From Candidatus Woesearchaeota archaeon (lineage in GTDB: Archaea > Nanobdellota > Nanobdellia > Woesearchaeales > J110), in assembly GCA_003694805.1 (NCBI GenBank), contig RFJU01000131.1, positions 7,976 through 71,975 of the forward strand: a DNA stretch of 64,000 nucleotides, written 5' to 3'. How positions within the stretch are numbered: the first letter of the stretch is position 1; every line of letters starts with the position of its first letter. The position numbers were made by a program, and so were the translations under genes. Below, piece after piece: positions 10,785 to 64,000 of this stretch. The notes under the pieces are model-generated. The model did no database searches. It worked only from the letters and a program-made list of their open reading frames with translations, and had not been told where the DNA came from.

Positions 10785-12488
<1,704 letters not shown>

Positions 12489-16090: not shown

Positions 16091-16128
16091 TATTGCTTTT
16101 GGAAGAAGGCGATGTTTCTTTAAATGAG

Positions 16129-16533
16129 TTATGGGGTTGCTTCCGGAACAGTGTGAAAAAGCGTGTTCAGGCCTTGTTTGAGTGTTTTCTTGTCTGCGAT
16201 GGTGTTGTGATGATACGGACTGATTGCCCAATATTGATTGTGGCGGGGGTTGACAAAGAAGATTTTGAGCGAGGCGTGAGTGGTGAAGTCGTTCCAGTGT
16301 TTTATGAGGAATTGAAGGTTTTCTTTGGTGTTGCGTGTTACGATGGTTTGGTTTTGGGCAGTATCGAGTTCTTTTATTACTTCTTGGTTGAGCCGCTCTC
16401 TGATGAGATAGGTGGTGGTGCGGTCTGTGAAGGTGAAGGTTATTTTGTTTTTTTCTTCCCTGATGTCGCGCAGGGTTCTGAAGATGAGGTCGCGAGCTTG
16501 AACATAGGTTACTGTCCATTCTTGCAGGTTCAT
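16129..16533 (-). CDS. Hypothetical protein (134 aa)
   Basis: MNLQEWTVTYVQARDLIFRTLRDIREEKNKITFTF... Its ATG overlaps the stop of the upstream gene (ATGA-type coupling). The longer track ORF is a His/Pro/Arg-rich extension. Confidence 0.5.
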   Translation of the reverse strand: MNLQEWTVTYVQARDLIFRTLRDIREEKNKITFTFTDRTTTYLIRERLNQEVIKELDTAQNQTIVTRNTKENLQFLIKHWNDFTTHASLKIFFVNPRHNQYWAISPYHHNTIADKKTLKQGLNTLFHTVPEATP

Positions 16534-17018
16534 GGTTCGTCCTCGTGTAAGTGTGCTGCATAGAGAGTGGGCACTAGTGTGGCGGTAAAGAACAGCGCTG
16601 CAACGATGATGAGGGGGGGCTGCGAGAAGAGCATGAACGTGCGTAGTTTGTGGAGAAGCAGTGCGAGCATTGCGCTGCTTGCAAGGGTGATTGCTGTGAT
16701 GGTGATTGTTGTTTTGGCGTTGTTGTCTTTGAAGTGGAGGATGGTGCCGGTGATGAAGAGGCCTGCCATGAAGCCCAGTATTGCTGTGAAGAAGAGGGAG
16801 GGCGGGGGAGGGAGGAGGAAGTGAACGATGAGGACGAGGATGATTGCGTTTACGTGTGCCGCTGCTGCAATGAGGAGTTGAGCATAGGGGAATGTTTTTT
16901 CTATACCCTTGAGTACAGCGTGTTTTTTTCGTTCGGCTTTTTGGATGATTCGTTTGGCATGGCGAATTTCGTGGGGGCGCCATCCTTTCCTGGCCAGTTT
17001 GTGCTCATCGATGTGCAT
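16530..17018 (-). CDS. Membrane protein (about 4 TM), hypothetical
   Basis: MHIDEHKLARKGWRPHEIRHAKRIIQ... is followed by hydrophobic segments. The promoter motif AACACAACCTATTTAAAC lies immediately upstream on the minus strand. Confidence 0.5.
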   Translation of the reverse strand: MHIDEHKLARKGWRPHEIRHAKRIIQKAERKKHAVLKGIEKTFPYAQLLIAAAAHVNAIILVLIVHFLLPPPPSLFFTAILGFMAGLFITGTILHFKDNNAKTTITITAITLASSAMLALLLHKLRTFMLFSQPPLIIVAALFFTATLVPTLYAAHLHEDEP

Positions 17019-18221: not shown

Positions 18222-20741
18222 TTACTTGTCGGTTGTCGGTAGCTCGCCGTTGTCTTCTTTGACGATTTTTGCTGCGGTGATGAGTTTGTCTCCTTCCCGA
18301 AGGTTCATGACTCGTACGCCTTGTGTGTTTCTGCCTATCCTTGAGATGTCCTTGGCCCGTGTTCTGATGATCGTTCCTTGCCGGGAGATGAGCATGACTT
18401 CATCTTCAGCAGTGACGCTGAGGATTGCTGTTGCTTTGCCGTTGCGATTGTTGCAGATGATGTTTCGAACGCCTTTGCCGCCTCGGTTGGTGAGTCGGTA
18501 TGCTGAGATGGGCGTACGCTTGCCGTAGCCGTTTTCCGTGACGGTGAGTATATCATTGTGGTCATAGGCAATGATCATTCCGATTATACTTTCGCCTTTT
18601 GCAAGGGTTGCTCCTCGAACGCCCATGCTTGATCTGCCTGCCGGCCTGACGTCTTTTTCGTGGAACTTGACCGCTCTCCCGTTGGCTGTGGCGAGGATGA
18701 CTTGCTTGGTGCCGTCGGTGAGGAGGACGTTGACGAGTTCATCTCCCGGCTTGAGTGTTATTGCAACGATGCCTCCCGAGCGGGGTCTGGAGTATGCTTC
18801 GAGCTTTGTTTTTTTGACCGTCCCCTTCTTGGTTGCCATGAGGAGGTAGTGTCCTTGCTTGAATTCCTTGATAGGTATAACTGAGGTGACACGCTCGCCG
18901 GGGGAAAGCTTTACGAGGTTGATAAGTGCTCTTCCTTTGGAATAGCGGGAACCTTCAGGGAGGTTGTAGACTTTGAGCCAGTGAACGCGTCCTTTGTCAG
19001 TGAAGATGAGGAGGTGCGCGTGGGTGTTGGCTACGAAGAGGTGTTCGACAAAGTCTTCTTCTTTCGTGTTAGTGGCGCGGATGCCAACGCCTCCTCTTCG
19101 TTGTATTTTGTATATGTCGATGGGTGTGCGCTTGGCATAGCCTGCGTGGGTGATGGTGACAACCACGTCTTCTTCTGCGACGAGGTCTTCGATGTCAAGA
19201 TCTCCTTCTTCCTCTGTTATGGTTGTTCGGCGGTCATCTCCGTATTTTTCTGCTATGGTGGTGAGTTCTTTTTTGATGACGTCTTTGATTTTTTCTTCAG
19301 ATGACAGGAGGTCTTTGAGTTTGGCAATGAGTTCTTTGAGTTGTTTGAGTTCTTCCCGTACTTTTTGTTGTTCCAGGTTTGTGAGCCGCTGGAGGCGCAT
19401 TTCGAGTATTGCGTTTGCTTGTTCTTTGGTGAGGCGGTACGTGCTGATGAGGTCGGCGCTTGCTTTGGTTGCGTCTTTTGCTGCTTTGATGATTTTTATG
19501 ACGTTGTCGATGTGTTGGAGTGCGATGACGAGACCTTCGAGGAGGTGGGCTCGTTGTTCTGCTTTGTTGAGGTCGTAGCGGGTGCGTCGTTTGACAACGA
19601 GGATGCGGTGGTCTATGAATTTTTCAAGGATTTCCTTTATTGTGCACACTCGTGGTTGTCCTTTGTCGATGACGAGGAGGTTGATGCCGAAGGTTGTTTG
19701 GAGACGGGTATTTTTGAAGAGCTTGTTTTTGATAACGTCTGCGTTAGCGCCTTTCTTGAGTTCTATGACGACGCGCATTCCTGTTCGGTCGCTCTCGTCT
19801 CGCAGGTCGCTGATGCCGTCGACGATTTTGTCGTTGACGAGGCGTGCTATTTGTTCGATGAGCTCTGCCTTGTTGACTTGGTAGGGGATTTCTTTGATGA
19901 TGATGTTTTCCTTTTCTCCGCGGGTTTCTGTTGTGAGGACTGCTTTAACCCTGATTTTTCCTCTTCCTGTTGCGTAGGCGTGGGCGATACCTGCTCTTCC
20001 GGCTATAACGCCGCCGGTGGGGAAGTCCGGGCCGGGCAGGATTTCCATGATTGCTTTGGGGTCAAGGTCTGGGTTGTCGATGAGTTTGCAGGTTGCATGG
20101 CAGACTTCTTTGAGGTTGTGCGGGGGTATGTTGGTTGCCATTCCGACGGCGATGCCGCTTGAGCCATTGACGAGGAGGTTGGGGAATGCTGCGGGGAGGA
20201 TGACGGGTTCTTTGAGGGAGCCGTCAAAGTTGTCGGTCATGTCGACTGTGTCTTTTTCTATGTCGCGGAGGAGTTCTTCAGCAATTTTTGCAAGGCGCGC
20301 TTCGGTGTAGCGCATTGCAGCAGGGTTGTCACCGTCGATGCTGCCGAAGTTTCCTTGGCCGTCGATGAGGGGGTGGCGCATGCTGAAGTCTTGGGCCATG
20401 CGAACGAGGGCTTCGTAGACGGCGCTGTCGCCGTGGGGGTGGTATTTGCCGAGGACTTCTCCAACGATGCGTGCGCATTTTTTGTAGGAAGAAGTGGGTT
20501 TGATGCCCATGTCATGCATGGCGTAGAGAATTCTTCGATGAACGGGTTTCAGCCCGTCGCGCACATCAGGGAGGGCTCTGCCGACAATGACGGACATGGC
20601 GTATCCGAGGTAGGAGGTTTTCATTTCCTCCTCGATGACGCGAGGCACGATGCGTTCGGAAGAAGCTTGTGACGTGGTCGCGGTGTTTTGTGGCTCAGGT
20701 TCTGCTTCTTTTTTTGTCATGGAAGGTCTCCGCTTCGTCAC
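18222..20741 (-). CDS. gyrA: DNA gyrase subunit A
   Basis: Active-site region [28 protein letters not shown], a full 839-aa GyrA and a C-terminal beta-pinwheel. Confidence 0.95.
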
Positions 20742-43457: not shown

Positions 43458-44435
43458 TTAAACGTCTTCTATGCCTTTATCTGTTATTTTGAAGACGCAT
43501 TCGGTGTCTGCAAGGTTGGGTGCGTCAATGAGTTTGGCCACGCGCGTGCCTTTCTTGCCTCTTCGCAAGTAGATGCGGAACGTGCTGTTGTGGGCGACGA
43601 TGTTGCCACCGATGGCTTCTGTCGGGTCGCCGAAGAACTGGTCTGGTTTGTGCATGACTTGATTCGTGACGTAGACGCATAAGTTGTGTTTGTCTGCGAT
43701 TTTGCTGAGCGTGTGCATGTGCTTGTTGAGTTTTTGTTGGCGTTCAGCCAATGTTCCTCTTCCCACGAATTCGGCTCTGAAATGTGCCGTGAGGGAGTCG
43801 ACAATGACGACGCGGACGTTGTTTCCTTGCGCGATGACGTCTTCTATTTTTTCTGCGAGAAGCATTTGATGGTCTGAATTGAATGCCCTTGCTACTTTGA
43901 TGTGTTGAAGAACGTCGTCAGGATCGAGGCCGTGGCCTTGGGCGATTTGCACCGCGCGTTCCGGCCTGAACGTGTTTTCCGTGTCTATGTAGACCGCTAC
44001 GCTTCCGGGTGCTTGTTTTTGGACGAGGACTGCGAGCACGTGTCCGATTTGTGTTTTGCTTGAGCCGTAGGCGCCGAAGCACTCCGTAATGGCTCCTGTT
44101 TCAAAGCCGCCGGCGAGCATGTCGTCGAATGCTTTAGAGCCGACGCTGATTTTCAGGACGGATTCGCGTTTTCTGAGCAGGTCGATGCCTGACTGAAACC
44201 CCATATCAAGGGAGTCTCGTGCTGAGTTAATCATTTTGCGAGCTGCTGCTTCAGTTACGCCTGCTGCGCTGACGAGTTCTCCGGGCGTCGCGACGGCGAT
44301 GGACATGACATCTGAGAACCCTGCGCTGACGAGTTTTTCAGCTGTCGCCGCTCCGACACCGGGGAGGTCTTCGATAAGGAGTTCTTTTTTTGTTTCCATG
44401 ACTATTGCTTCTTGTTTTGTTGGCACAGGTTTCAC
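43458..44435 (-). CDS. radA: DNA repair and recombination protein RadA
   Basis: An N-terminal HhH domain ([12 protein letters not shown]) plus a RecA core ([12 protein letters not shown]). TATA 'aatatttttaaac' lies ~35 nt upstream. Confidence 0.95.
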
Positions 44436-45625: not shown

Positions 45626-45814
45626 TTGTTGCCAGGGGTTGCCGCTCGGGTTTGGTTGCTGTTGTGTCTTGGCGCCTTTGAGGTAGGTACTAGCGTTTCT
45701 TCGTGCTTTTCCTATTTATATTTTTCTCCTCGTTGTACTTGTTCGGCCTTAAACTGACGCTTTTCTGGAGTGGGGTGTGGACGGGTTGATCAGTCAGTAG
45801 AAGAGGGGTGGTTT

Positions 45815-46378
45815 TCAAGAGGTGTGGTGGCGTTTCCACTTGATGCTGCAGCCTTGGCTGGGAAGGAAGGGTTTGGTTACCTTGCCTTTTGCGAGGAGTT
45901 CTTGGATTGCTTCGTCCATGTCGTGCTGTCTGGGGACCTGGCCGGGGCTGAGTGCGTCATCGATTCTGCCGTGCCACGCCAGTTTTTTTGCTCGATCAAG
46001 CAGGAAGGGGTCCGGGGTGCAGACGGCGCCGTACGCTCGCGCAACGTCTTGGGTTTCGTCAAAGAGGTAGGGGAAGTTCAGAGCGTGTGCGCGGGCAAAC
46101 CGCTGCATGTTATCGAAGCTGTCGTCTGGGACGATGCCTGGGTCGTTGCTGTTGATGCCGATGAGGAGGACGCCTTTATCCTTGTACGTATCTTGGAGGG
46201 TTTTGAGGGTTTCGATTTTGGGGAGGACGTAGGGGCAGTGGTTGCAGATGAAGATGATGAGGAACGCGTTGCCTTCGAGCTCGCTGAGCGTGTAGGTTTT
46301 TCCGTCGACGCCTTTGAGGGAGAAGTCCGGTGCCTTCTCGCCGATGGCAAGTTTTTGTTGCGATTGGAGGAGTACCAT
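45815..46378 (-). CDS. Thioredoxin-fold redoxin (TlpA/AhpC-TSA-like thiol-disulfide oxidoreductase)
   Basis: [36 protein letters not shown] carries the CxxC motif on a typical redoxin fold. Confidence 0.7.
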
Positions 46379-46492
46379 GGTAGCAAGCAGGTTGTGTCGT
46401 TCTGGTCCTTGCTGGCCGTGGTGTTTAATAAAGGTTTCCCAGGCGCCGCGGGAGAAACATTTATAAACCCTTTTTGTTGGTCTCGTCTTGTA

Positions 46493-49400
46493 ATGGTAGG
46501 GGTGAGTTTTCGTTCGCTTCAGAGGGTGCCGCTCTTGGTGGTGTTCTTTGCTCTCGTGCTAGTCCTTGGAGGGGGTTTGTTCGCTTTTTTGGCACTCGCC
46601 AGGCCTACTTCGTGCGAGCCTGTTTGTGATGCGTTTGATGTTTGTACGAGTGGCACAAGCCCGGGTCCTTGCGAGGCGAGTTCATGTGCTCCTGGTGAGA
46701 CGTGTTTAGAAAAGTACTGCAGTGGCTGTTCTGGAGCGACCGATCCTACGTCTCCTTCCTGCACAGGGGGCGTGTTTCACTCGTGTGAGCCAGCGTGTAG
46801 CTCGTGGGATGTGAACAGCGCGGGCGTTTGTTGCGGGGATGATCCTGGCGAGGCGGGGCCGTTTTCCGAGCCGGAAGGGGCTGACGTGTCGTATTGTTTT
46901 GATGGGAACGATAATGATTGTAACGGATATGTTGATTGCGATGATACTGCTTGCTTCGGCGCGAGTGCCGATGTTGAGTTCACGGATACGGGGTCGTCGT
47001 GGGTCGCGCCGGGAGGAATGGTTCCGTACAGTGATGGCAATACGGGTCGCGTTGATAATACGCCGTGCGATGCGTACGATATCGGGGCGAAGCAGGCGTA
47101 TTTCCTGGCGTCGGAGGGTGTGCGCTACGACGCGACGTGGGAGAGAAAAGATGAAACATGCGAGAAAAGAGTTCTGGGTGAATGGACTGACGTAGGAACA
47201 AATTCATTTTGCAAGACGCATATTGTTGATGAAGGCGGCAGCGAGGTTGCGACCATTGAAACGCAGACGGGGTGCCCGACAGGCTCAAGTGTGCGAAACC
47301 CAAAAGATGAGTGGCACGACCAAGGCGACGCGACGGTGGATTGGCATCATTTGGAGACGAGGTCGTGTCCTTCCTGCTCTCCTGCTAGCGAGATTTGCGA
47401 CTACGCAGATAATGACTGTGATAACGAGGTGGATGAGGGGTTCAACGCAGGGGATAGTTGTGGCGGTCCGGGATGTGTTCTTGACTGTCTCAGCGATGGT
47501 TCCGGGACGCAGTGCGTGCTCAACACGACGTGGGCACCGCCGGACGCGACCGAGACGAATTGTGGTGACGGCATTGACAACGACTGCGACGGGAGTCTTG
47601 ACTGTGCAGATAGTGACTGCGACTACCAGGTAGTGCCTAAGTCGTCAACAGGTGAGACGTGGACGCCGCCTGCAGGGAATACGGGATGGGTGCGAGTGAA
47701 GTACACGGAGAGGGGAGTCGCGCATGAAATTTTTTACGCGAGTGTTGATGCTACGAAAACGTACGCGTCTGAACTTGATCGTTCCTGCCAGCAAGTGAAG
47801 TGCGACCCGGGGCCTCCCCTTGCTCAGTACGGCTTGAGTGGTAGGCAAAACCTCTTCTTGGTTGAGGACGGGGCGGATGTTGCTTCAGATAGATCGCTTT
47901 GTCGGTGTGAGGGCTTTGCTTCCGAAGCGGGGTGCGAGGATGGGCAGATGTGCACTTCAAGTTCTGATGGGCAAGCAAGAACGCGTGTCGATGCAACGTG
48001 GGAATGGGAGGAGGAAGTTGGCGATCCGGGTTGCGGGTCGTGCTCGGCTGAAGTGTGTGATGGTCTTGACAACGATTGTGATGGCGTTGTGGACAACGGT
48101 TTTGATCCTGAATCATGCAGACCGCTCTGCGAGTATCAGGGTTTTCAGTGGACGAACAATGGGGGCTCGTTAAATTGTTGTGGGAACGATGCGGGCGAGG
48201 ATAATCCCTTCGAGGGTGTTGAGTCATTGTGTTTTGACGGAAATGACAACGACTGCGATGGCAACATTGATTGTAACGACAATGACTGCGCCGGGTTTGG
48301 TGGAACGTCGGTGGAGAATAGCGTGTCCGGGCGGGATTCATGGTCTGCCCCTGGCAATGTCTCGAACCTCGCCCGGGCGGAGCAGTCTTCGGGGAGCAGC
48401 TTGGTTGAGTTCGCGCCGCGTGGCGGTGAAACGTACAACACCGTTATTCGTACGAAGACGAGTATTGTGCCTGTGACATTTGGCTCGTGCGGTGGCAGCG
48501 CGGGAGTGGGCAGCGTTGGGTGCGCGCCTTACGAGCAGCAGTTCTATGAAGTGCGCGACTCGTTAGGTAACGTGATCGGGACAGATCGCGTCGGGGAAAC
48601 GTGCAGAGCATCGTGTGGTACGGCTTTCGGTGCTGACAGTTGTGGAAGCCATATTCCGGGGTGTGAATCGCAGGCTGGCGAGTCTGAGAGTGATGAGTTG
48701 TCTGACTGGACGTGGGAAGAATCAGCGGGGGACGCGTGTTCTTGCGAAGACAATGATGGTGACGGCGTGAACGCCACGGGAGGGTCGTGCGGCCCTATTG
48801 ACTGCGACGACAACGACGCCAGCGTCAGCTCGACCATCACGTGCACGGACTACAACACCTGCACCGACACGAGCATGTGCACCACGTCCTGCCCTGCAGC
48901 GCCCGCCGAGATTTGCGATGACGGCGTTGACAACGACTGCGACGGGTTGGCTGATTGTCGTGATAGTGATTGTGCCGGTCCGGACAACGATGGTGATTTG
49001 TACTTTTCCTCTTCAAGCAGTTCTGCTTGCCCCGTGGATTGCAACGATTCGGACCCGAACAACTATCCGGGGAACGTCGAGGTTTGCAGTGACGGGGCGG
49101 ATAACGACTGTGATGGCTTCGTTGACGAGGCGGACAGCGCGTGCGTGATTAATTTGACGCTTGCGCCGAGCCCTGCCAACCCTGCAACGACGGTGACTGC
49201 GACGGTTGAGGCGTTCGATGGCGTGTTCCAGACGGGCTCGTACCGGGTGAGCGTGTGCGATTATCAAGGATGTGACCTGAGCGATCCGACCGGGTGCGTG
49301 GCGGGGAGTGCTATTGATCCGAGCTGCGATCGCCTGGACGCGAACGGCCTTGCGAGTGTGGCGTGTTCGTTCACTGCGCCGGGAATCGGGGCGGGTTACG

Positions 49401-52018
49401 GTTATTACGCGTGCGTTGGCGAAAATGCGGATCAGGAGCTCTTGGATGTTGTTGGTGGGGGGCATTGTGGCCTTGGCAGTTCCCACGCTGAGGATGATGA
49501 GGTCTCTCCTGCCGAGTTCTTTCACGAGTGCGACGCGTCGGAGGAGGGGGGTGATTGTTCGGGCGTGACGGATTGCAATTCGTATAATTATTCTTCGTGC
49601 TCGTCGTGCAGGGTGGAGAGCAGTTCCGGCTCGAGCAGGCTGTATTTCTCGTGTGATGATTACTGGTGTAGCGGCCTTGAGGCGGATAGCTCTGCAGGGT
49701 GCCAGGATTCAGGAAGCGACTGGTTCCCTCTTGACGAGGTTTGTGACCTTGTCCGCGCTAATGATTCTTCTGCAGGTCCTGCGTTGGGGCGGGGCTTTTG
49801 TGGGTATAACTGGTGCAGCCCGCCTTCAGAGAACGTGGCGTATCTTTGTCACGTGAACGCGTCGGGCTCGCCGGTGTGGACGCCGAATGCGTCTTTGCCC
49901 TTGACAGCTGAGGCTGGCGTTCTTGGTGGCGATGCTCAGTGTAGTGACGGGTTCGATAACGACTGTGATGGGCTTATTGACTGCGATGATGATGGGTGCG
50001 ATTGTGAGGGAGATAATAATCAGGTGACATGCGAAGATTTGGGTTTTCAGTGGGATGCTTCGCGGTCTCCTCCTGAGCGGCGGTGCTGTGGGGATGAGCA
50101 GAATGCGTCATGGCATGAGGACGACCCGTTCGGCGTTAGCGAGGCGGGGCTTTGCGGTGATGGGCGTGATAATGATTGTGATAATGAGAATGATTGGGAT
50201 ACGCTTGATCGTGACACGGGCGATGGGTGGGATAGCGCGGGGGTTCACGGGGACAACGATTGTGCGGTGAGCATTGTACGTTTCTCGGCGCCTAATTCCT
50301 CAGAGGCGGGAACGCCCTTTGTCGTGAATTGTACCGTGAACAGCCCCGGAGAGTTCAACAGCGTTCACGTCGTGCTTGACGAGAATGAGGATGGCGAGTT
50401 TAACCTCTCAAAAGGGGACGTGCTCTGCCCGTTCATGCAGTGGCTTGCCGCGACCCCCACCGTCGCGCAGTTCAATTGCTCGTCCTCGTTGCCGAGTGGT
50501 TCGTATGCGAGGACGCAGTGCTTCGTGAACACCAGCAGGAGTTACGACGCGACGGGGCCGCTTCAGAACAGCACACTCCTGACCGGTTGTTTTGACAACG
50601 ATGGTGACGGGTACCAAGGGTATGATCCTTTAGGATGCCCGAGCGGCGATGATTGTAACGATGCTGATGTGAGCGTTCACCCGGGAGGTTTGGAGATTTG
50701 CGAGGATGGTGTTGATAGCAACTGCAACGGGAATGATGATGAGGCGTGTCCGTTGCCCCTTGTTTTCCGTGTTGATTTCGAGACGAATGTGTTCGATACG
50801 GCGCCGACGTGGGAGCCGTTCAACGTGAGTGATTACGGAGCGGTGCCGGGTTGGTGGTACGGGTGGCAAGACAGCGTGGGCGACGGAGTCACGAGCAGTG
50901 ACGCTTCCTTGCCCGTGTGGGGGTCTTTGCTTGGCGACCACCATGATGTGAATGGTGTTTGGGATGCTGACGTTCCTGAGAAGACAGGCTATACTGTGAA
51001 CGTGTATACTGGCGACGCGTCTCTTGATTCTGGTTTGTTTGATGTGTATGCTGAAGGCTTCTTGAAGTTATTTGATGTGCAGAGCGGGGCGGGAGAGTAC
51101 AAAGTGGAAACGTTTGAAACGAATGTGACTGACGGCACGCTCTCCTTGCAGTTTGTCGTGAATGGCGATCGCGGGCTCGTGAGTGGCGTGGAGGTGTTCT
51201 ACACGGCGTGTGACTTTGACATGGACGAGGATAATCACTCTGGCGCCTCATGTGGCGGGAATGATTGTGATGATACAAACCCGTTCCGTTCGAGCTTGAG
51301 TACGAACCCGTACTGTGATTGTAATGACGCCGCGCCGTACCAAGACGTGCAGAGCGAGTCTGCGTTCGGGTGTGATGGCATTGACAATGATTGCGATGGA
51401 GAGGTTGATGAAGGCGTTGGCGGTTGCTTTGGAACGTTGGAAGGGTATGTTTTGAATCAGTTTGGTGTCGGGATTGAGCAAGCACTGGTTACTGCACAAA
51501 AGCAAGGCGTTCCCGATAGGAATACTGAGAGTGATGTTAGCGGGTTTTATTCCATGTCACTTTCGTCCGGGAACTACGTCGCGAGTGCACGCAAGTTCGG
51601 GTTCATGCCTGACACTGCACCGGTAAGTATCGTGACGGGTTCGACAACCTATCAGAACTTTACGTTGTTGAATGGGTCGTGCACGGCTGATTGCACGAAT
51701 TGGGAGGGGCGCTGTGACACGTCGTGTGAGGGGTATGTTGATCCCGCAACCGGGGACACGTGCCATTTCTATGATGAGAAAGTAGAGGCGCTCTGCGAAG
51801 GCAAGCTTCTTGGAACGGATGTGTTTTACGGTACGGGGAGTGATGATCGTGATTTGTTTGTGACGTGTTGTGAGGGAGGCCCTGGCGGTGGCGCGCCGCG
51901 GGAGTTGAGGCGCCCGCTTCTCGATGTTGAGGGCAATATGAAGCACTTGGTGAGAAGAACGATTACGTCAAGGTGCGGGGCTCAGCCGTGCAAGGTTATT
52001 GTTTTCACGTGGGAGTAA
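46493..52018 (+). CDS. Giant (~1840 aa) Cys-rich surface protein: N-terminal signal anchor, ~11 DNDCDG-type putative metal-binding repeats, C-terminal carboxypeptidase-regulatory-like beta-sandwich
   Basis: Start set at [36 protein letters not shown], because the upstream in-frame extension is antisense to the redoxin gene. Repeated C(F/G/S)DG(x)DNDC(D/N)G(x)(V/I/L)D(C/E) motifs. The C-terminus is [23 protein letters not shown]...[19 protein letters not shown] (CarboxypepD_reg-like). Confidence 0.8.
47578..51410 (+). repeat. Dispersed intragenic DNA repeats (~30-35 nt, 'gacaacgactgcgacgg...') encoding the DNDCDG motifs
   Basis: Copies near 47578, 48067, 48241, 48925, 49096, 49951 and 51373. 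They are coding, not CRISPR: spacing is irregular and units are imperfect. Confidence 0.6.
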
Positions 52019-57027: not shown

Positions 57028-57477
57028 TTATACGGCGATGAGGAGGTATGCATCAACGAGCACCAGCGTCCAGAAAAGCACGTGTTCTGTGGTTTTCCCG
57101 ACTCGGACCGGCCCCTTGAGCCGGAGCGTGCTGGGAAAGAAGGGTCTCACGCCGCGGGGGGTTATGGCTTCGGAGAAAATGTGGGAGAGATAGCCGAGGA
57201 GGAAGAAAAGGGCGGCTCCTTGCCGTGGTGCGATGCCGTAGAGGAGGATGGTGAAGAACACGGCGAAGAGGACGGAGTGGAAGACGCCGCGGTGGGGGAA
57301 GAGCCACGCAATAATTTTTGCTTTCCTGCCGAGGGCGCTCTTGTGTTCGTCAAGGTCTGGCAGGAGGGCGCCGAGAAAGAGGGCGATCGTGCCAAGAATG
57401 CCTATGCGGATTCCTGTCATGTGCTCAACGAGGAGGCCGAAGAAGAGGGCGATGGCGAGATGGGTTTTTCCAAGCAT
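57028..57477 (-). CDS. Membrane-bound metal-dependent hydrolase (DUF457/YdjM-like)
   Basis: LPDLDEH, HRGVFHS and GYLSHI His/Asp motifs on 4-5 TM segments. Confidence 0.6.
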   Translation of the reverse strand: MLGKTHLAIALFFGLLVEHMTGIRIGILGTIALFLGALLPDLDEHKSALGRKAKIIAWLFPHRGVFHSVLFAVFFTILLYGIAPRQGAALFFLLGYLSHIFSEAITPRGVRPFFPSTLRLKGPVRVGKTTEHVLFWTLVLVDAYLLIAV

Positions 57478-58251: not shown

Positions 58252-59469
58252 TTAGTCGAGATCTTCTAAGTCTTCCAGGCTGAGAAGGTCTTCTTCAAAG
58301 GCTTCTTCGTCCTCTTCTTGTTGTGTCGTTGGGGAAGGAGCGTCGGCGGATGTGTCCTTGGCGGTGTTTATTTGCTCTGCCTCGATGTTTTCCGGGTTCT
58401 CTACTTCGGCTTCATTGGCTGCTTCCTGGTCGAGTCCGCTCGGTTTTTCTTGAGGGCCTGCCTCGTTGCTTGCGCTCCTTTCTTGTTCTGCTTCGATGAG
58501 GGCGAGTTCTTCTTTGGGAGACACGTTGGGGAAGACGAGGTTCGCGACGAACTCTGTTCGGTCAAACATGGTGTTGTGTTGCGCTTTTCCAACAAGTTTG
58601 ATGATGGTGCCGAGAAGGTCGGTCTTGACAGCTTCGAACTCGTGGGGGGCTTCTTTGTAGGCAAGGATTTCTTCGTGGGTTTTGCCGAGGAGTTTTTGGA
58701 CTTGGTTTTGCCAGAGAACGACTTGCATATTCGCGGTTCCGTCATCGAGGTAGAGGTTGAGGACGTAGCTCGTGTTGGGCGTGATGGGTCCGTGCACGTC
58801 GCACACGGCGCCTTTGGCGTCTGCTCTGACACGCTTGCCGCATTGAGGGCACTTGTCGAAGAATCGGGGGCTGAATACTTGGACGATGGTGCCGAGTACT
58901 TCGACTTGCTCTTCTCCGGGCGTGAGTTCGCCGAGGTGTTTGCGCTTTGGCTTTTGGATGATGTCGTCGGGGTTGACGTTGAGTGGGTTGATGGTTAGCG
59001 TGCTTGAGTCGCTAAGGTGGACTTCTGCCCTGCCGTTATTGTCTCGTACGGTGGCGCCTTTGATGAGCACGACGGTTCCTTCGTGGAGCTGGTTGAGGTG
59101 GTCTGCTTGCTTGTTCCAGAGGACGACCCGGGTCGTTCCTGTTCCGTCGTTGAGAATGAAGTTCGCTACTTTCCCTTCTTTCCCGTCTTTGTTGAAGGTT
59201 CGTTGTTCGAACACGCGTGAAACCTTTCCGAGAAGTTCTACGGCGCGCATGCCTGGGAGGAGGTCTTTGATGGAGAGTTTTCCCCGCGGGGGTACTTCAA
59301 TGACTTTGACGCCGAGTTCGTTGGCTATGATGTGCGCTGCGCCTTCTTTGGAGATGAGGCCGCTGAGTTGGTCGAGCTTTTCTTTAATGCGTTCCTCAAG
59401 CTCTTCTCGCGATATGCCTTGCTGCTCCTGTATTTTTTGGAGAATGGTTTCGTAGGGTACTTCAATCAT
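58252..59469 (-). CDS. rpa: Replication protein A (RPA)-like ssDNA-binding protein with OB folds, Zn ribbon and acidic C-terminal tail
   Basis: N-terminus MIEVPYETILQKIQEQQGISREELEERIKEKLDQLSGLISKEGAAHIIANELGV, as in euryarchaeal RPA41. Zn ribbon CPQCGKRV...CDVH. C-terminus DLLSLEDLEDLD. Confidence 0.75.
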   Translation of the reverse strand: MIEVPYETILQKIQEQQGISREELEERIKEKLDQLSGLISKEGAAHIIANELGVKVIEVPPRGKLSIKDLLPGMRAVELLGKVSRVFEQRTFNKDGKEGKVANFILNDGTGTTRVVLWNKQADHLNQLHEGTVVLIKGATVRDNNGRAEVHLSDSSTLTINPLNVNPDDIIQKPKRKHLGELTPGEEQVEVLGTIVQVFSPRFFDKCPQCGKRVRADAKGAVCDVHGPITPNTSYVLNLYLDDGTANMQVVLWQNQVQKLLGKTHEEILAYKEAPHEFEAVKTDLLGTIIKLVGKAQHNTMFDRTEFVANLVFPNVSPKEELALIEAEQERSASNEAGPQEKPSGLDQEAANEAEVENPENIEAEQINTAKDTSADAPSPTTQQEEDEEAFEEDLLSLEDLEDLD

Positions 59470-59623: not shown

Positions 59624-62600
59624 TTATTGCGTGCATTCGAGGGGTTCTGGCTGGAAGAGCGAGGTGTTTTGTTGGATGATGTGGTCGGGGGTTTTCCACT
59701 GGTTCTGACCTTTAGGAGGCAGGTAGAGGGCGAAGGGGATTCTCACAGGGGGTGTTGCGAGCGTTGTGTTTTGGCAAACGTAGGGTATGGGCTCTGCGAG
59801 AGGAAGCTCTGCACAGAAGGTGTAGTAGCGTTTTTCTTGATTACAGAGCGGTATTGCTCCTTGTTTTTGTGTGTTGTTAAGGAGTGTTTCGTCGAGGATT
59901 TCGCCGGTGACGTAGTCAAAGAAGGCGCCTTGGGGGTTTTGGAAGATGCCAAGGTATTGGCTTCCTTGCTCACAAAAGGGGGAGGCGAACTTGTCCAAGA
60001 CGTTGCCGACGCCGAGTGCTCCGGCAAAATTTGCTAGGGATCCGATGCCGCTTTGGCTTGCTGCTTGGTCTTTGTTGCATGCGTTGAGTTGTTGGAGGAG
60101 CGTGATGGTCGGGTGTTGCGTGTTAGGAAGGAATTTTCCGAGCACGTAGCGTGGCGTGGAGTTTTTGTAGAGGAGGAGTGTCGGGTACGGGTCTCTGAGG
60201 GTTCTTGTGTTGTTGCTTGCAAGGTCTTGTGCGGCGAGGAAGGGTTCTGGCGTGGAGGCGTTTATGGTGCTCCAAAGGGTGGCTTCTTTGAGGTTTGGTC
60301 TTTGTGTTTCGTCTTCTGCGTTGGCGAATTGGGTTGTGAGGGCGACATCGTAGATGATTGTTGTTTTGTTGATGAGTTGGACGTGGCCGTCCGGGGTGAG
60401 TCGTATGGCTGTGCCTGGTGGAGGGGGCGGGAGGCGTGTTGTTTGCGGGTCGCAGAGGCAGCCTTGGTTTGGCTGGGCGTGGCAGTCCGCAAGCGCTTCC
60501 ACGACCGTGGCGAAGGCGGAGAGGCGGTCGTTGTTCGGGCAAGCGCCTCTTGTTATTGTTCCTGGGCCTTGGTAGTGGTTGATCCTGTCTTCAACGCAGG
60601 ATTGGATGTTTGCGCCGTTCTCTGTTGCACAGCGCTCCGTTGTTGCTTTCGCCCAGGCAATAAGGGAGGTGAAGCTGGTGAAGTTGAAGGGGAGGGTGGT
60701 TGTTGCGTTGGGTACGAAGGTCAAGGTGCCGAAGACTCGTTCGGACGGCGTTGGCGGGGTTTTCTTGGTTGGATCTTGCGTGGCGAGGAGGGCGTCTCCC
60801 CCCCATGCGGAGAGGTAGGCCATGACTTTTTCTACGTAGTCGGGGTCGCCGACGGTTTTTCCGTTTCTTTCGCAGTACCAGCCGTTGTAGCCGCGCAGAG
60901 TGGCTTGCCAGCCTGTGTAGGTGAGCCACTTGTCGTGGTTGGGGTTGCCGCGTGGGCAGTACTGTTGGGCTTTGCTCTTGCTGATGCCGTTCGAGAAGAT
61001 GTTTCGTTTTTGTTTCAGGATGGCTACGCCGCAGCAGATGTTTTTTTGGACATCGAAGAGTTCTTCGGGGGTGGTGATTTTGCATGCTTGCTGGCATTCG
61101 GGGAGTGATTTATCGTTTATCATCATGAGGCCTCGGTCCGTAGAATCTTTATTGTACCCTATGGCGTTCTTGTCGCCTTTGCTTTCTACAGTGATGATGG
61201 CGAGGACGAGGCTGGCGGGGAGGTCGGTGAAGTCGTGCAGGGTTTTTGCGTTCTCAATTGCGTTTAGAATGGTATTCATGCCGATGGCTTCAAGGTTCTT
61301 CTTGGTTGCTTCAAAGTTTTTTTGCTGGGAGGGGGTGAGGAGCTGTCTGGCTTGAGTGGTGCTGATGCCTTGGGAGAGGGCTGCTTGCGGCGCGGTTGGG
61401 AATGCGAGGGTGTTGATGGTGTGTTTGTTCCAGTACGGTGCGCATTCTTGGGCAAGGACGGGGTCGTCGGGGCTGATGCTGTAGGGGTTTTTGCTGTACT
61501 TAGCGCAGCTGCGCGCGCTGGCTCCTCTTTGTAATCGTTTGAATTCTTCGGGTTTGAGAAAGCAGAGGGGGTTGACGCCTTTGTCCGTTGCGGGCCCTGT
61601 TTGGGGGAGGTAGATGCTCCAGTGAAGGTGTTTTGCTTCGGAGTACCCGGTGTTGCCGACTTTTCCAACGAGGGCGGTGATTTCTTTGTGAAGGGGTGTG
61701 TCGCCTTTGTTGACGTTGTAGACGACGTCGTCGAGGTGGGCAAAGCGGGTGTAGAGGCCGTTGTCGTGTTTGGCGATGAGGGTGTTTCCGTAGCCGGTGC
61801 CATAGTCTGCGCATTTGTTTCGGCACGTTCGGGGGCAGGTGGTGTCGACGAGGGTGCAGTGGCAGGCATTGTTCCAATCGCCGCAGGAGTAGATGATGTC
61901 TGCGCTTGCTGGGAGGATGACGTTGTCTTCATTGTTAATGCCTGTTGCTGGATCTTTGAAGGGCATGCCGATGAGGTCGATGCCGTCGTGGAAGTCTCGT
62001 TGCCCGTTTTGGAGTGTTCGCTCGCCCCAGCAGGACGTGATAATAATTTTCCTTCCTGGGAGGGGCAAGAGGAGTGTTCGTATTGCAGTTGGATCTGCTG
62101 CGGGCGACGCTTCGAGTTGGTTGGCGAGGGTGATGGGGAGGTTGATGGTGTCGTTTCCTTCGAGGAGGAGGGTGAGAGGGTCGTCGTTTAGTTTTTTGAG
62201 GTTGTACGGGACGGCGCCAATGGCAGGGTGGGTGATGAGTGCCGTGTCGAGAAGGGGTTGGAGGGCGGTGGTAAGTGCGGGTAGCGGGTTCGGGTAGCAC
62301 TCTTTGCCAGGGGCGGTCCAGAGTGGTACGAGGTAGGTTCCGCACGTCGTGTTGCGTGGTGTGAGGCTCGCGTTTGCTGTGTTGAAGAGGGCTTCTTGTG
62401 CTGTGAGGGTGAGTGCGCGCGTTAAGTAGTGGCGGAGGAGGCCTTCTTCTTGGATGGTGGCGGAGAGCGCGCTTTGCCTGAGGCCGAGGTACTCGTTGGT
62501 CGGGTTGGTGAATTTGCCAAGGACTAGGCCGAAGAGGAGGGCTACTGCGACGATGACGGTGATGTAGATGAAGAGGGGTATGAGGGGGATGGCGTCGCTG

Positions 62601-62644
62601 GTTCCTTTTTTGTTGGTTCTGGCGTTCATGGAATATTTCCTCAT
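59624..62644 (-). CDS. Large secreted protein with M23 (LytM) peptidase and SLT lytic-transglycosylase domains
   Basis: N-terminal TM anchor. M23 motifs HDGIDL ... HLHWSIY with a Cys-rich insert. SLT block LAIITVESKGDKNAIGYN...DRGLMMIN. Long Cys-containing C-terminal region with many N-x-T sequons. Confidence 0.75.
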   Translation of the reverse strand: MRKYSMNARTNKKGTSDAIPLIPLFIYITVIVAVALLFGLVLGKFTNPTNEYLGLRQSALSATIQEEGLLRHYLTRALTLTAQEALFNTANASLTPRNTTCGTYLVPLWTAPGKECYPNPLPALTTALQPLLDTALITHPAIGAVPYNLKKLNDDPLTLLLEGNDTINLPITLANQLEASPAADPTAIRTLLLPLPGRKIIITSCWGERTLQNGQRDFHDGIDLIGMPFKDPATGINNEDNVILPASADIIYSCGDWNNACHCTLVDTTCPRTCRNKCADYGTGYGNTLIAKHDNGLYTRFAHLDDVVYNVNKGDTPLHKEITALVGKVGNTGYSEAKHLHWSIYLPQTGPATDKGVNPLCFLKPEEFKRLQRGASARSCAKYSKNPYSISPDDPVLAQECAPYWNKHTINTLAFPTAPQAALSQGISTTQARQLLTPSQQKNFEATKKNLEAIGMNTILNAIENAKTLHDFTDLPASLVLAIITVESKGDKNAIGYNKDSTDRGLMMINDKSLPECQQACKITTPEELFDVQKNICCGVAILKQKRNIFSNGISKSKAQQYCPRGNPNHDKWLTYTGWQATLRGYNGWYCERNGKTVGDPDYVEKVMAYLSAWGGDALLATQDPTKKTPPTPSERVFGTLTFVPNATTTLPFNFTSFTSLIAWAKATTERCATENGANIQSCVEDRINHYQGPGTITRGACPNNDRLSAFATVVEALADCHAQPNQGCLCDPQTTRLPPPPPGTAIRLTPDGHVQLINKTTIIYDVALTTQFANAEDETQRPNLKEATLWSTINASTPEPFLAAQDLASNNTRTLRDPYPTLLLYKNSTPRYVLGKFLPNTQHPTITLLQQLNACNKDQAASQSGIGSLANFAGALGVGNVLDKFASPFCEQGSQYLGIFQNPQGAFFDYVTGEILDETLLNNTQKQGAIPLCNQEKRYYTFCAELPLAEPIPYVCQNTTLATPPVRIPFALYLPPKGQNQWKTPDHIIQQNTSLFQPEPLECTQ

Positions 62645-63225
62645 ATGTTTTGGTTTGCGGTGAAGGAGATTCTTTTGAGTGTGACTCGGTACGTTGTTTG
62701 ATTATATCCTAGCACTGGCGTTGTTGCTTGGGTGGTTAGATATTTTTTTGCTGCTAGTGCTTTGCTCTGTGCTGTAGAGGTTCCTGTGTAGATTTTGCTT
62801 CCTGCATGCGTAAATGCGCTGTCTTGGAGGAGCAGTTCCCCCGTTGTTGCTTTGGTAATTGTTAGTGTGAACTGTGCAGGTTTTGTTTGTTCGAGGACGA
62901 ATCGTTTGAAGTGTTCCTTTGTCTGAGGAAATCCTGTGCCGAGTGTTGCTTCGTACGTGATGAGGTCTGCGATGTATTTCACGTAGGGTCGTGGAGGAGT
63001 TGTTACGGGTGTTTGAAGGAAGGCTTGGAGGTCGTAGCCTATCGTGTTGTCCGGGAATTCTGCCGCTGAGGAAGGGTTTTGCTTGGTGACTGTTGTTGCG
63101 GGGAGGAAGATGAAGATGAGAATGGCAATGAGAGCGATGCTTAGGATAACGAAGGCGTCAATAAGGCCTTCTCCTTGTTTTCTTGCGGGGCGGTGGTTGT
63201 TCGGATTACGAGTTTGTTGTTTCAT
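62641..63225 (-). CDS. Pilin-like protein (short charged N-terminus + hydrophobic helix, T/S-rich body)
   Basis: MKQQTRNPNNHRPARKQGEGLIDAFVILSIALIAILIFIF... ATGA overlap with the downstream hydrolase gene. Confidence 0.45.
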   Translation of the reverse strand: MKQQTRNPNNHRPARKQGEGLIDAFVILSIALIAILIFIFLPATTVTKQNPSSAAEFPDNTIGYDLQAFLQTPVTTPPRPYVKYIADLITYEATLGTGFPQTKEHFKRFVLEQTKPAQFTLTITKATTGELLLQDSAFTHAGSKIYTGTSTAQSKALAAKKYLTTQATTPVLGYNQTTYRVTLKRISFTANQNI

Positions 63226-63799
63226 GGGGGAGGAGTATGGTTATGCGCAGTGTTCCTGGCTTCCAGTGCGTTTCTTGTTCTTCCTTGTAGGTGATGGTGA
63301 AGTTGCGAAGGACCATAGTTGCGCCTCCGCGCCCTTTGATGGCGGCGAGGGCGGTTGGTTCGGTGCGGTTGTATCCTTTTTCGTTGATGTAGGCCGTCTT
63401 GATGCGTGTTTGGTTGGCGTCGAAGAGTTCGAGCTTTGCTGACACAGTGATTTCGCTTGGTTGTGGGTGTTGGTAGATGGTGTTGAGGTGGTTGTTGTCA
63501 AAGTGGTCAAGGATGATTCGTCCTGGTTGCGCCGTTCTCGTGAAGGGGTTTTGTGCTACGATGCCGTTGGGTGCATACATGACGCGCGTCCAGAGGGCTG
63601 TTGCTTCTGCTTGTCTTGAGTCAATGGTTTTGTCGGTGAGGTAGTAGGTGAGCGAGAGAATGATGCCTACCGTTACGAGAATGAAGATGAAGCGAAAGAT
63701 AAGAATGGGTGCGTAGCTGATTTGTCCTCGTTTGTTGCGCAGTGGCTTCATCGCGAGTGGTTTCTGGCAGCGCGGCTTGTGTGTCTGGTTGGTCTTCAT
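63206..63799 (-). CDS. Type IV pilin-like protein with archaeal class III signal peptide
   Basis: ...LRNKRGQISYAPILIFRFIFILVTVGIILSL fits [KR]G|Q followed by a hydrophobic stretch. Overlaps the next gene by 20 nt. Confidence 0.55.
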   Translation of the reverse strand: MKTNQTHKPRCQKPLAMKPLRNKRGQISYAPILIFRFIFILVTVGIILSLTYYLTDKTIDSRQAEATALWTRVMYAPNGIVAQNPFTRTAQPGRIILDHFDNNHLNTIYQHPQPSEITVSAKLELFDANQTRIKTAYINEKGYNRTEPTALAAIKGRGGATMVLRNFTITYKEEQETHWKPGTLRITILLPHETTNS

Positions 63800-64000
63800 C
63801 TTCTTCTTTTTCGGCGATGATTCTTCTTTGGCGCGGTTGCGCGCTTAGGGGGGCGTGTTTTGGCGTTGTCGCGTCGAGGGGGGTGTTGTGGTGTAGGTGT
63901 AGATGTAGATGGTGTTGTTGGTTTTGTAGAGGGGGATGGTGGATGGTTTTGAGATGGAGGATTTGGCGACGGTCGTTGTCGGGCTGGTTGGGATGGCGTA

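Follow-up and report, generated by a model that had tools for sequence, protein, structure and literature searches.

Within the 64-kb stretch of DNA analyzed in this work (hereafter the window), three minus-strand genes, which we call pilin1, pilin2, and giant (Table 1), are coupled in the manner originally predicted: the open reading frames were verified, and the direct reading of the sequence revealed a 20-nt overlap between pilin1 and pilin2 (63206-63225) and an ATGA overlap between pilin2 and giant (62641-62644). These overlapping reading frames suggest that the trio is co-translated. A further open reading frame, noticed earlier as running off the window, is real and corresponds to the 3' end of the position -3 gene (three positions upstream of giant), which encodes 156 aa and is complete in L001, a locus of the same genome. 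The host contig bears the NCBI name Candidatus Woesearchaeota (a MAG of an uncultivated tiny archaeon). This assignment, together with the archaeal markers identified on the contig (RPA with DUF2240, FEN1, RadA, PAN, tRNA-splicing endonuclease, and Trm5), shows the contig to be archaeal.

Table 1. Features of the locus; a slash marks the putative cleavage site
Feature	Position	Strand	Description
pilin1	63206-63799	minus	197 aa ORF; basic leader ending NKRG, hydrophobic helix (QISYAPILIFRFIFILVTVGIILSL), α/β head
pilin2	62641-63225	minus	194 aa ORF; leader RKQG/EGLIDAFVILSIALIAILIFIFL; adjoins giant on its upstream side
giant	59624-62644	minus	1006 aa ORF
giant, aa 1-44	62513-62644	minus	Prepilin-like N-terminus (MRKYSMNARTNKKG/TSDAIPLIPLFIYITVIVAVALLFGLVLG); AF2 helix 21-44
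giant, aa 45-190	62075-62512	minus	Family-specific N-module; conserved columns in alignments A1, A2, and A6
giant, aa 195-365	61550-62062	minus	Peptidase_M23 domain with Cys-rich insertion; H219xxxD223, H303, H339xH341, then NPLCF
giant, aa 460-615	60800-61267	minus	SLT (GH23-type) lytic transglycosylase/lysozyme-like domain; E487 in VES, GLMMIN, RGYNG
giant, aa 620-1006	59624-60787	minus	Conserved Cys-rich C-terminal module; conserved columns in alignment A1
Position -3 gene, 3' end	63845-64000	minus	Whole gene L001:2970-3440, 156 aa; N-terminus GKRG/DMTAFKFLTLFELLFGG
RPA-like ssDNA-binding protein	58252-59469	minus	Pfam match; downstream neighbor, context rather than part of the apparatus
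YdjM	57028-57477		Syntenic context gene

Domain architecture of the giant protein

The original prediction placed an M23 and an SLT domain in a protein of about 1000 aa, and both were recovered above the Pfam cut-offs with their catalytic residues intact: Peptidase_M23 (PF01551) matched aa 280-346 with 38.2 bits (cut-off 28.7) and SLT (PF01464) matched aa 475-552 with 43.3 bits (cut-off 21.3; 3.1e-11). The M23 motifs are HDGIDL (219-224), FAHL (301-304), and HLHW (339-342), and those of the SLT domain are VESKGD (486-491) and GLMMIN, the latter inside 500-510. The HxxxD and HxH motifs align with the solved M23 enzymes 2hsi, 5j1l, and 9k2v, and the alignment check on which the prediction had been made to depend found H219, D223, H303, H339, and H341 of M23 and E487 of SLT all in place. 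The columns of H219, D223, H303, and H339 and that of E487, the catalytic Glu of the E-S motif, are nearly invariant in the family alignment, HxD replacing HxH in many relatives. When the family profile was compared with the PDB, it retrieved the M23 proteins ShyA (8e-30) and also lysostaphin, LytM, and zoocin A, as well as MltC, MltF, Slt70, and MltE at about 1e-10; the SLT domain gave a weak match as a single sequence. On the basis of the profile and of the HxxxD...H...HxH residues, giant can be assigned to peptidase family M23 (LytM/lysostaphin type), and on the basis of the profile and of the catalytic Glu to the SLT/GH23 enzymes, the sequence being compatible with either a lytic transglycosylase or a muramidase chemistry. 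Giant is, in other words, a predicted enzyme able to cut the bacterial cell wall.

The protein is anchored N-terminally through a hydrophobic helix, in agreement with the membrane anchoring proposed for it. Its N-terminal signature reads NKKG/TSDAIPL, and 66 of 96 long family members likewise have [KR][KR][GAS] directly ahead of a hydrophobic helix. The N-module comprises G54, Q57, a long helix (55-93), a C101-C116 hairpin, a helix (120-137), and a β-hairpin; no structural match was found for its AF2 model (pLDDT 79, with a break after the membrane helix), in which no pilin fold is detectable. The C-terminal module, with its landmarks GTxxxxP..., C672, C683, C702, C721, C729, C731, C934, C944, and IPFALYL, had no Pfam match at E<=0.1 and none among the best 60 of 98 PDB profile matches, and in longer relatives it is extended by an FN3-like tail. 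About 79 cluster representatives match giant at E<1e-10, the named ones being all archaeal (Woesearchaeota, Nanoarchaeota, or "archaeon").

The surprise expressed earlier at murein hydrolases in such archaea was overstated, since they have been reported since 2013-2022 (PMC8204110, PMC9723730, PMC12352652). Large murein-hydrolase proteins of Woese- and Pacearchaeota are already published (PMC8204110; Vigneron et al. 2022, PMC9723730), and they share with giant the lineages, the size, the secreted or anchored state, the SLT/GH23 domain, and a proposed role in the binding and degradation of bacterial walls; by description (1006 aa, SLT, Woesearchaeota MAG), giant fits fam00969 (PMC8204110), the large murein-LT proteins of DPANN that are confined to Woese- and Pacearchaeota. 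Giant and these lytic transglycosylase (LT) proteins are probably one family. However, only an LT domain was reported there, to which giant adds an intact M23 domain, a prepilin-like N-terminus, and its place at the end of a conserved row (7 to about 18 genes) whose products share this N-terminus. We found in the literature no published account of the genomic context of these large proteins, and full-text searches of PMC8204110 and PMC9723730 revealed no mention of a pilus, a type IV system, or gene clustering.

A conserved gene row with prepilin-like N-termini

Other assemblies supplied eight further loci, in which giant closes a row of 10 to about 18 genes that all point the same way, the row genes being without Pfam matches; in the window's own genome at least seven genes of the row are visible (L001). 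In these eight loci, giant is again preceded by the position -3 protein, pilin1, and pilin2, in that order, and RPA usually follows giant (L002, L003, L005/L006, L007/L008, L010, and L011/L012). Position -3 proteins were recovered in all eight leave-one-out HMM tests (E=1.9e-7 for the window copy) and pilin1 in 6/6 loci by BLAST. Pilin2-position proteins were recovered in five of eight leave-one-out tests, the window copy not being among them; the latter, whose N-terminus parallels NKRG/EEMLIDFWAIL of L007, can be read as a divergent occupant of a conserved slot directly upstream of giant. The row also includes tiny proteins of 80-97 aa in which one helix carries a small head. Some position -3 orthologues reach about 300 aa, and one of them (L003:4861-5844) carries Amidase_3 (1.2e-9; CwlD 3.7e-7); Amidase_2 domains are present in the giants of some relatives, so that the same system harbors additional murein-hydrolase modules. 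To judge from this comparison, the trio forms the 3' end of an operon that is conserved among Woesearchaeota-type DPANN archaea and that reaches about 17-18 genes in relatives. The coupling of giant to prepilin-like genes is, in this respect, stronger than first claimed: giant shares their type of N-terminus, the row is longer, and the gene order is conserved in eight further loci.

An N-terminal hydrophobic helix is present in 101 of 102 row proteins, and G, A, or S immediately follows the last K/R in 80 of 95 (84%), compared with 4 of 19 controls (21%; p=1.5e-7), the controls being other N-terminally anchored proteins. The +1 residue is most often Q, and in L013 fourteen of fifteen row proteins start with M(x)[KR][KR]G. 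The predicted class III-like site of pilin1 (NKRG/QISYAPILIF) is indeed present, that of pilin2 (RKQG/EG) being atypical. Taken together, the row proteins display, at the sequence level, what would be expected of a class III leader, i.e., a short basic segment ending in G/A followed by about 20 hydrophobic residues. The strict FlaFind pattern, [KRDE][GA][ALIFQMVED][ILMVTAS]x3, does not describe the row, as it fits 14 of 102 row proteins, 6 of 71 controls, and none of the three window proteins (pilin1, pilin2, and giant).

The description of the two small proteins as type IV pilin-like holds, therefore, for their N-terminal signature, but no pilin HMM and no solved pilin structure matched them. 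Neither pilin1 nor pilin2 matched any Pfam or NCBIfam model; among 61 row proteins no pilin, archaellin, or class III HMM (Pfam, NCBIfam/TIGRFAM) gave a match at E<=1, one marginal GspG match being recorded at 0.073, and PDB profile searches returned no pilin. The model of pilin1 (pLDDT 82) consists of a helix of about 45 residues and a globular α/β head, without structural match to solved pilins. It had also been suggested to look for a PilB/PilC-type ATPase, a platform protein, or a prepilin peptidase, but none was found in the 64-kb window, which also lacks a Peptidase_A24, or in the examined parts of the other loci. The extension of the contig past position 64000 (L001) yielded the row of at least seven genes. 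By analogy with stand-alone pilin loci, the three assembly components may be encoded elsewhere.

Possible nature and origin of the apparatus

The finding that giant closes a row of prepilin-like genes points to, but does not prove, a surface structure with which the archaeon could attach itself to bacterial walls and open them. The attachment and wall-breaching apparatus originally proposed is sustained in part, by the intact hydrolases, the anchoring, and the coupling to prepilin-like genes, the pilin identity of the small proteins being unconfirmed. We consider the chances about even that the row encodes an apparatus resembling a type IV filament, which would expose bacterial walls to murein hydrolases. 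According to this model, the row proteins would be inserted N-in into the membrane and cut after G/A by a class III signal peptidase whose gene lies at another locus, and they would then be joined through their N-terminal helices into a surface structure of the type-IV-filament kind, either a pilus or a short pseudopilus. The tiny 80-97-aa subunits, with a Cys knot, might form the bulk of the filament, and the four conserved proteins at the end of the row (position -3 protein, pilin1, pilin2, and giant) a priming or tip complex. Giant would be a modular subunit presenting to the bacterial sacculus an M23 endopeptidase, acting on peptide cross-links, and an SLT enzyme cleaving glycan strands, joined in some lineages by amidase domains. 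In this way the archaeon might fasten itself to a bacterium, be it host, prey, or carcass, and breach its wall locally.

This model is compatible with what is known of related systems. DPANN have TFF "system 1" machineries, separate pilin loci are possible, and in archaea binding domains are found grafted onto class III proteins (10.64898/2026.04.22.720090); for bacteria, modular pilins are well established (PMC8179133). Like the latter (S. sanguinis PilB, PilC, ETEC CofB, and T2SS GspK), giant combines a class III-type, prepilin-like signal with grafted effector modules, minor-pilin-like neighbor genes, and a proposed position at the filament tip. However, modular pilins are bacterial and have a G/F..E5 motif, a recognizable pilin module, and mostly adhesin modules, whereas giant is archaeal, with an N-module lacking a detectable pilin fold and with murein-hydrolase modules. 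The Epd pilus of Methanococcus maripaludis (TFF "system 1"; 10.64898/2026.04.22.720090, PMC3875500) resembles the row in its multi-gene class III operon, its KG/Q-type sites, its very small major pilin, and its reported presence in DPANN; nevertheless, the Epd locus carries genes for an ATPase and a peptidase of its own as well as two platform genes, nothing of this kind was seen at the row locus, and the row proteins did not match Epd or other class III HMMs. The halobacterial M23 hydrolases ("Woldo"; PMC12352652, where M23 homologues were also noted in four Nanoarchaeia genomes) are likewise archaeal M23 enzymes aimed at bacterial murein, but they are small, secreted, two-module proteins with PG_binding_1 that are patchy, horizontally acquired, and kill bacteria, whereas giant is very large, anchored, vertically conserved, and embedded in an operon.

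Other interpretations have to be considered. It is possible, even though we regard it as rather unlikely, that the N-termini are uncleaved signal anchors and that the row encodes bitopic membrane proteins forming an anchored surface complex without a filament; in that case the hydrolase would sit at the archaeal membrane or at a contact site, acting by cell-cell apposition or scavenging wall fragments. Plain signal anchors would not be expected, though, to show so uniform a [KR][KR]-G/A junction (the 84% versus 21% given above), the 80-97-aa subunits resemble major pilins, and seventeen co-oriented genes with one leader type suggest a common processing or assembly route. Giant might also be a housekeeping autolysin, remodeling a murein-like or other envelope polymer of its own cell during division or the passage of a structure, as do VirB1, FlgJ, and PleA in bacteria. 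The locus is vertically inherited, is single wherever seen, and lies among RPA, RadA, YdjM, and SpoIIM across deep divergence, which matches the expectation for a core cellular function; yet no mur genes were found in the 64-kb window. It is well established that archaea lack murein. Pseudomurein is built with β-1,3 linkages and L-amino acids, which SLT and M23 enzymes are not known to cut. In the published view, moreover, these lineages have no murein and their enzymes target bacteria (PMC8204110, PMC9723730), and we hold the autolysin to be improbable.

A recently acquired lysin of a mobile element or virus (e.g., a tape-measure or internal virion protein, or a PrgK/VirB1-type conjugation hydrolase) appears to us very improbable indeed. 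It is true that the best single-sequence PDB match is a phage internal protein (9k2v), that among the weak matches there are bacterial proteins in which M23 and SLT occur together with a phage tail tape-measure domain, and that PrgK of the enterococcal pCF10 T4SS shares with giant an N-terminal anchor, the LytM(M23)+SLT architecture, and the attachment to a surface machine (PMC11323569). However, the LytM domain of PrgK is degenerate and the protein opens the producer's own wall, whereas giant has an intact M23 domain, a producer without known murein, and no T4SS genes around it; no VirB4, VirD4, relaxase, capsid, terminase, or integrase domains were found in the window or in the examined parts of the other loci. 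Against a lysin stands also the exclusively archaeal membership of the named family. A recent horizontal acquisition of the locus, and with it the "horizontally acquired bacteriolytic weapon" of the original prediction, is unlikely because the synteny with the housekeeping genes RPA, YdjM, and RadA is conserved even among relatives with giants of only about 25% identity, and because the GC content of the locus (0.541) is near that of the window (0.518).

Returning to the filament model, its most specific version is that of a hitherto undescribed type-IV-filament-like organelle of Woesearchaeota-type DPANN, with about 10-18 dedicated class III-signal subunits, a body of tiny pilins with six-cysteine β-defensin-like heads, and a tip bearing a complete set of murein-degrading enzymes (M23, SLT, and, in some lineages, amidase); we put it forward tentatively and regard it as rather unlikely. 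If true, it would represent a cross-domain "wall-opener", and these archaea would live on bacteria, as episymbionts or predators, and not on other archaea.

The coupled genes and their contig

Direct reading of the sequence agrees with the original prediction of three genes on the minus strand that overlap by ATGA and by 20 nt: pilin1 and pilin2 (labels that we keep here) share 20 nt, and the ATGA is common to pilin2 and the long third gene, hereafter the giant. The further ORF expected to run off the end of the window is also real, its gene being whole in L001, a window-identical Logan contig that continues for about 3.3 kb past the window end. The contig is archaeal: it carries RPA with DUF2240, FEN1, PAN, the tRNA-splicing endonuclease and Trm5, as well as two RadA-type proteins and an AspRS of archaeal length. 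The bacterial-type GyrA and the Cpn60 of this otherwise archaeal contig fit the bacterial gene content already reported for DPANN. A very strong strand asymmetry extends over all 64 kb (plus-strand GC skew +0.09 to +0.40, AT skew mostly negative); since plus-strand genes are G+T-rich and minus-strand genes A+C-rich, the skew belongs to the strand and not to the coding direction.

Coordinates of the features discussed (window positions, unless a locus of a relative or the overlapping contig L001 is named)
Feature	Position	Strand	Remarks
pilin1	63206-63799	-	197 aa
pilin2	62641-63225	-	194 aa
giant	59624-62644	-	1006 aa; NCBI hypothetical protein D6783_05045, Candidatus Woesearchaeota MAG, 74,974-bp contig
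SLT stretch of the giant, aa 486-510	61115-61189		VESKGDKNAIGYNKDSTDRGLMMIN
H341 column of the giant	61619-61630		HLH retained
ORF fragment	63845-64000		3' end of a 156-aa gene, complete in L001
RPA	58252-59469		directly after the giant
YdjM	57028-57477		after RPA
80-97-aa row protein	L001:1557-1895 (~65390-65728 window-equivalent)	-	just outside the window
80-97-aa row proteins of relatives	L002:2211-2477; L007:2065-2313; L010:3781-4029; L013:4275-4520
larger row protein with the six-cysteine domain	L001:64-1524		domain after the membrane helix
position -3 protein with amidase match	L003:4861-5844		Amidase_3/CwlD-like (1.2e-9 and 3.7e-7)
giants with inserted Amidase_2	L009:8001-11636; L013:10001-13750		NRKGD subfamily
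DNA gyrase subunit A	18222-20741	-	bacterial-type, 2.8e-174
Cpn60	10878-12488	+	N-terminus appears GroEL-like on our own reading
RadA	15422-16561	-	full, with HHH_5 domain; RadA/Rad51 family, 6.2e-83
RadA/Rad51 paralogue	43458-44435	-	divergent, 1.9e-24
2082-aa ORF	45770-52018	+	two MopE-type putative metal-binding motifs (1.6e-21) and CarboxypepD_reg; start codon uncertain; probably another giant surface protein
253-aa N-terminally anchored protein	9441-10202	-	weak matches to glutaredoxin (E=0.005) and TraF (thioredoxin-fold, E=0.11); may act as a disulfide oxidoreductase outside the cytoplasm, which would bear on the many surface proteins rich in Cys

The hydrolase domains of the giant and its family

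The presence of M23/LytM and SLT blocks in one protein, as originally predicted, was borne out by Pfam, where both exceed their cut-offs (SLT, 43.3 bits against 21.3; Peptidase_M23, 38.2 bits against 28.7), and by alignments in which the catalytic residues are present. The M23 motifs (H219xxxD223, H303 and H339xH341) align with the matching motifs of solved M23 enzymes, E487 in VES represents the SLT catalytic glutamate, and H219, D223, H303, H339 and E487 are nearly invariant in the family alignment. A profile built from 24 family members matches ShyA (8e-30), lysostaphin, LytM and zoocin A on the M23 side, and MltC, MltF, Slt70 and MltE at about 1e-10 on the SLT side. Both hydrolase domains are thus real and, as far as can be judged from these alignments, look active. 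At the H341 column, many family members carry H-L-D (PHLDLKIY, PHLDFKVY) and not the canonical H-x-H.

The SLT stretch resembles the Glu...Asp arrangement of C-type lysozymes (FES...STDYGILQIN); the region matched the Pfam family Lys at E=0.0037, below the cut-off, and α-lactalbumin at E=0.14. The closest bacterial architecture to the giant is that of PrgK (LytM+SLT+CHAP), and because the “SLT” domain of PrgK turned out to be a muramidase (PMC11323569), that of the giant may hydrolyse its substrate instead of forming anhydro-muropeptides.

An exhaustive HMMER search retrieved 829 proteins at E<1e-3, 79 of them at E<1e-10. The better matches are 900-1450 aa long and have more in common than the two catalytic domains. 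Their shared order runs from an N-terminal segment through a conserved N-module to M23, which contains a Cys-rich insertion, and on to an NPLCF motif, SLT and a C-terminal module rich in cysteines; in some members Amidase_2 is also inserted, or an FN3-like tail added. Every member whose source is named is archaeal (Woesearchaeota, Nanoarchaeota or “archaeon”), and 66 of the 96 long members start with [NS][KR][KR][GA]/[QD]xF (the slash in sequences marking the predicted cleavage site here and below), followed by about 20 hydrophobic residues. The giant itself contains 30 cysteines, many in conserved columns, as would fit an extracellular protein. Amidases are found both in the row of genes upstream of the giant and within the giants of one subfamily (see the table); together with M23 and SLT, they would allow the system to cover, across lineages, all three murein bond classes.

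A conserved row of genes with prepilin-like N-termini

The gene order was compared across eight more loci, all distinct and taken from other assemblies (L002, L003/L004, L005/L006, L007/L008, L009, L010, L011/L012 and L013), in all of which the giant is the final gene of a co-oriented row of at least 10 genes without Pfam annotation. In most of them RPA directly follows the giant, with YdjM or SpoIIM and RadA close by, matching the arrangement of the window; in L013 the following gene encodes an archaeal Hef helicase and not RPA, which indicates that the unit formed by the row and the giant is conserved more widely than the synteny with RPA. In the window genome, L001 brings at least seven row genes into view. 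On the JGI contig that underlies L011 and L014, about 17-18 genes make up the row, which begins after a soluble 116-aa protein. An exact-tag metagenome scan added only 1.4 kb of upstream sequence. Pilin1, always the second gene before the giant, forms one orthologous group in six of six loci (BLASTP, N-termini stripped), an orthologue also occurs in L010, and a profile search returned 17 homologues, all unannotated. With leave-one-out HMMs, the protein encoded three genes upstream of the giant was recovered in eight of eight cases, including the ORF off the window edge (E=1.9e-7), and the pilin2 position in five of eight, with no off-target matches. The pilin2 of the window was too divergent for these searches to recover it or to show its orthology by sequence; its leader (RKQG/EGLIDAF) parallels that of L007 (NKRG/EEMLIDFW). 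The giant ends an operon of 7 to about 18 genes that is deeply conserved and has been inherited vertically.

An N-terminal hydrophobic segment is present in 101 of the 102 row proteins. When the residue after the last K/R before this segment was scored, with no preference for G, A or S built into the rule, it was G (56), A (20) or S (4) in 80 of 95 row proteins, as against 4 of 19 control proteins, which are likewise anchored N-terminally and encoded on these contigs (Fisher p=1.5e-7); a further K/R precedes the last one in 73 of the 95, and the commonest +1 residue is Q. In L013, M(x)[KR][KR]G opens 14 of 15 row proteins. Judging from their sequences, the row N-termini have the form of the archaeal class III (prepilin) signal, although only 14 of the 102 conform to the strict FlaFind pattern. 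The comparison with the control proteins led us to reject the positive-inside rule as a sufficient explanation of the [KR][KR]G junction.

The original assignment of the upstream genes as pilin-like holds in part. Their prepilin-type leader and the operon logic support the idea that the row proteins work like pilin-type subunits with a class III signal; no support emerged for placing them in any known pilin family, as no pilin, archaellin or class III model of Pfam or NCBIfam matched any of 61 row proteins at E<=1 (the sole real match being Amidase_3/CwlD in L003) and profile searches against PDB sequences returned no pilin. The model of the giant's N-module (pLDDT 79) places a membrane helix at 21-44, which an interruption of 10 residues separates from a long helix (55-93); a disulfide hairpin, another helix and a β-hairpin follow. 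It gave no structural match. Candidates for the major subunits are proteins of 80-97 aa, one or two per locus, in which KKG/xELSMNVIIIAAIALLVL is joined to a six-cysteine domain.

This domain, which larger row proteins carry as well, after their membrane helix, reads C-x6-C-x3/4-C-x9-C-x6/7-CC, with GGxC inside. Its best PDB matches are of the β-defensin type (gallinacin-11, E=0.0042; tick carboxypeptidase inhibitor, 0.0044), the platypus defensin-like peptide, crotamine and big defensin are also matched, and weak Pfam matches to Defensin_beta and Inhibitor_I68 agree. The likeness is short and Cys-biased and could be due to convergence.

Possible functions and their bearing on host range

The hydrolase itself is an already known kind of DPANN protein. 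Large murein-type lytic transglycosylases of Woesearchaeota and Pacearchaeota have been read as tools to bind or degrade bacterial walls (PMC8204110; PMC9723730), one such family, fam00969, sits in “Module 98” (PMC8204110), and M23 homologues occur in Nanoarchaeia, halobacterial M23 enzymes being experimentally bacteriolytic (PMC12352652). Pili, class III signals and clustering are not mentioned in these three papers or in PMC11537232. A 2026 survey of archaeal type IV filaments assigns a “system 1” to DPANN and describes pilin loci that stand alone as well as class III proteins that carry binding domains, with no mention of peptidoglycan or M23 (10.64898/2026.04.22.720090). We did not find described the coupling of the hydrolase to the row, the giant's prepilin-like N-terminus, the intact M23 domain or the extra amidase modules.

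The most economical reading, to which we would give roughly even chances, is that of a type-IV-filament-like apparatus presenting murein hydrolases to bacterial walls. Its subunits would all derive from one operon, the giant, largest and last-encoded, would present the hydrolases, and the assembly genes would be located elsewhere in the genome. The surface apparatus originally proposed is thereby partly supported, and extended by a conserved row with prepilin-like N-termini. No type IV filament ATPase, platform protein or prepilin peptidase was found within the 64 kb of the window or the portions read of the other loci, nor did permissive Pfam scans of the unannotated window ORFs reveal any of the three. 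The main rival has the same enzymatic purpose but no filament: a surface complex anchored in the membrane, which we regard as possible, if rather unlikely.

Were the giant an autolysin acting on the archaeon's own envelope, its vertical conservation would be expected, but what is known of archaeal walls is at odds with this idea, and we consider it improbable. A horizontally acquired weapon, as also suggested originally, is disfavoured; recent horizontal transfer was rejected on synteny and composition, and a recent origin from a mobile element, which taxonomy contradicts as well, appears highly improbable.

If the pilin reading holds, the idea of modular pilins, established in bacteria (PMC8179133), would be extended to archaea, with enzymatic cargo. 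The row also offers a physical account of some of the 51 unknown families whose co-occurrence in these lineages was reported as “Module 98”. Far from being a stray enzyme, the hydrolase is the end product of an operon, with a prepilin-like N-terminus of its own. Few uncultivated archaea are as abundant as Woesearchaeota and Pacearchaeota. The cultivated DPANN known so far all have archaeal hosts, with which the murein hydrolases of these two lineages contrast. What was a loose genomic hint thus becomes a defined, testable apparatus, and the host range of these archaea becomes directly testable.
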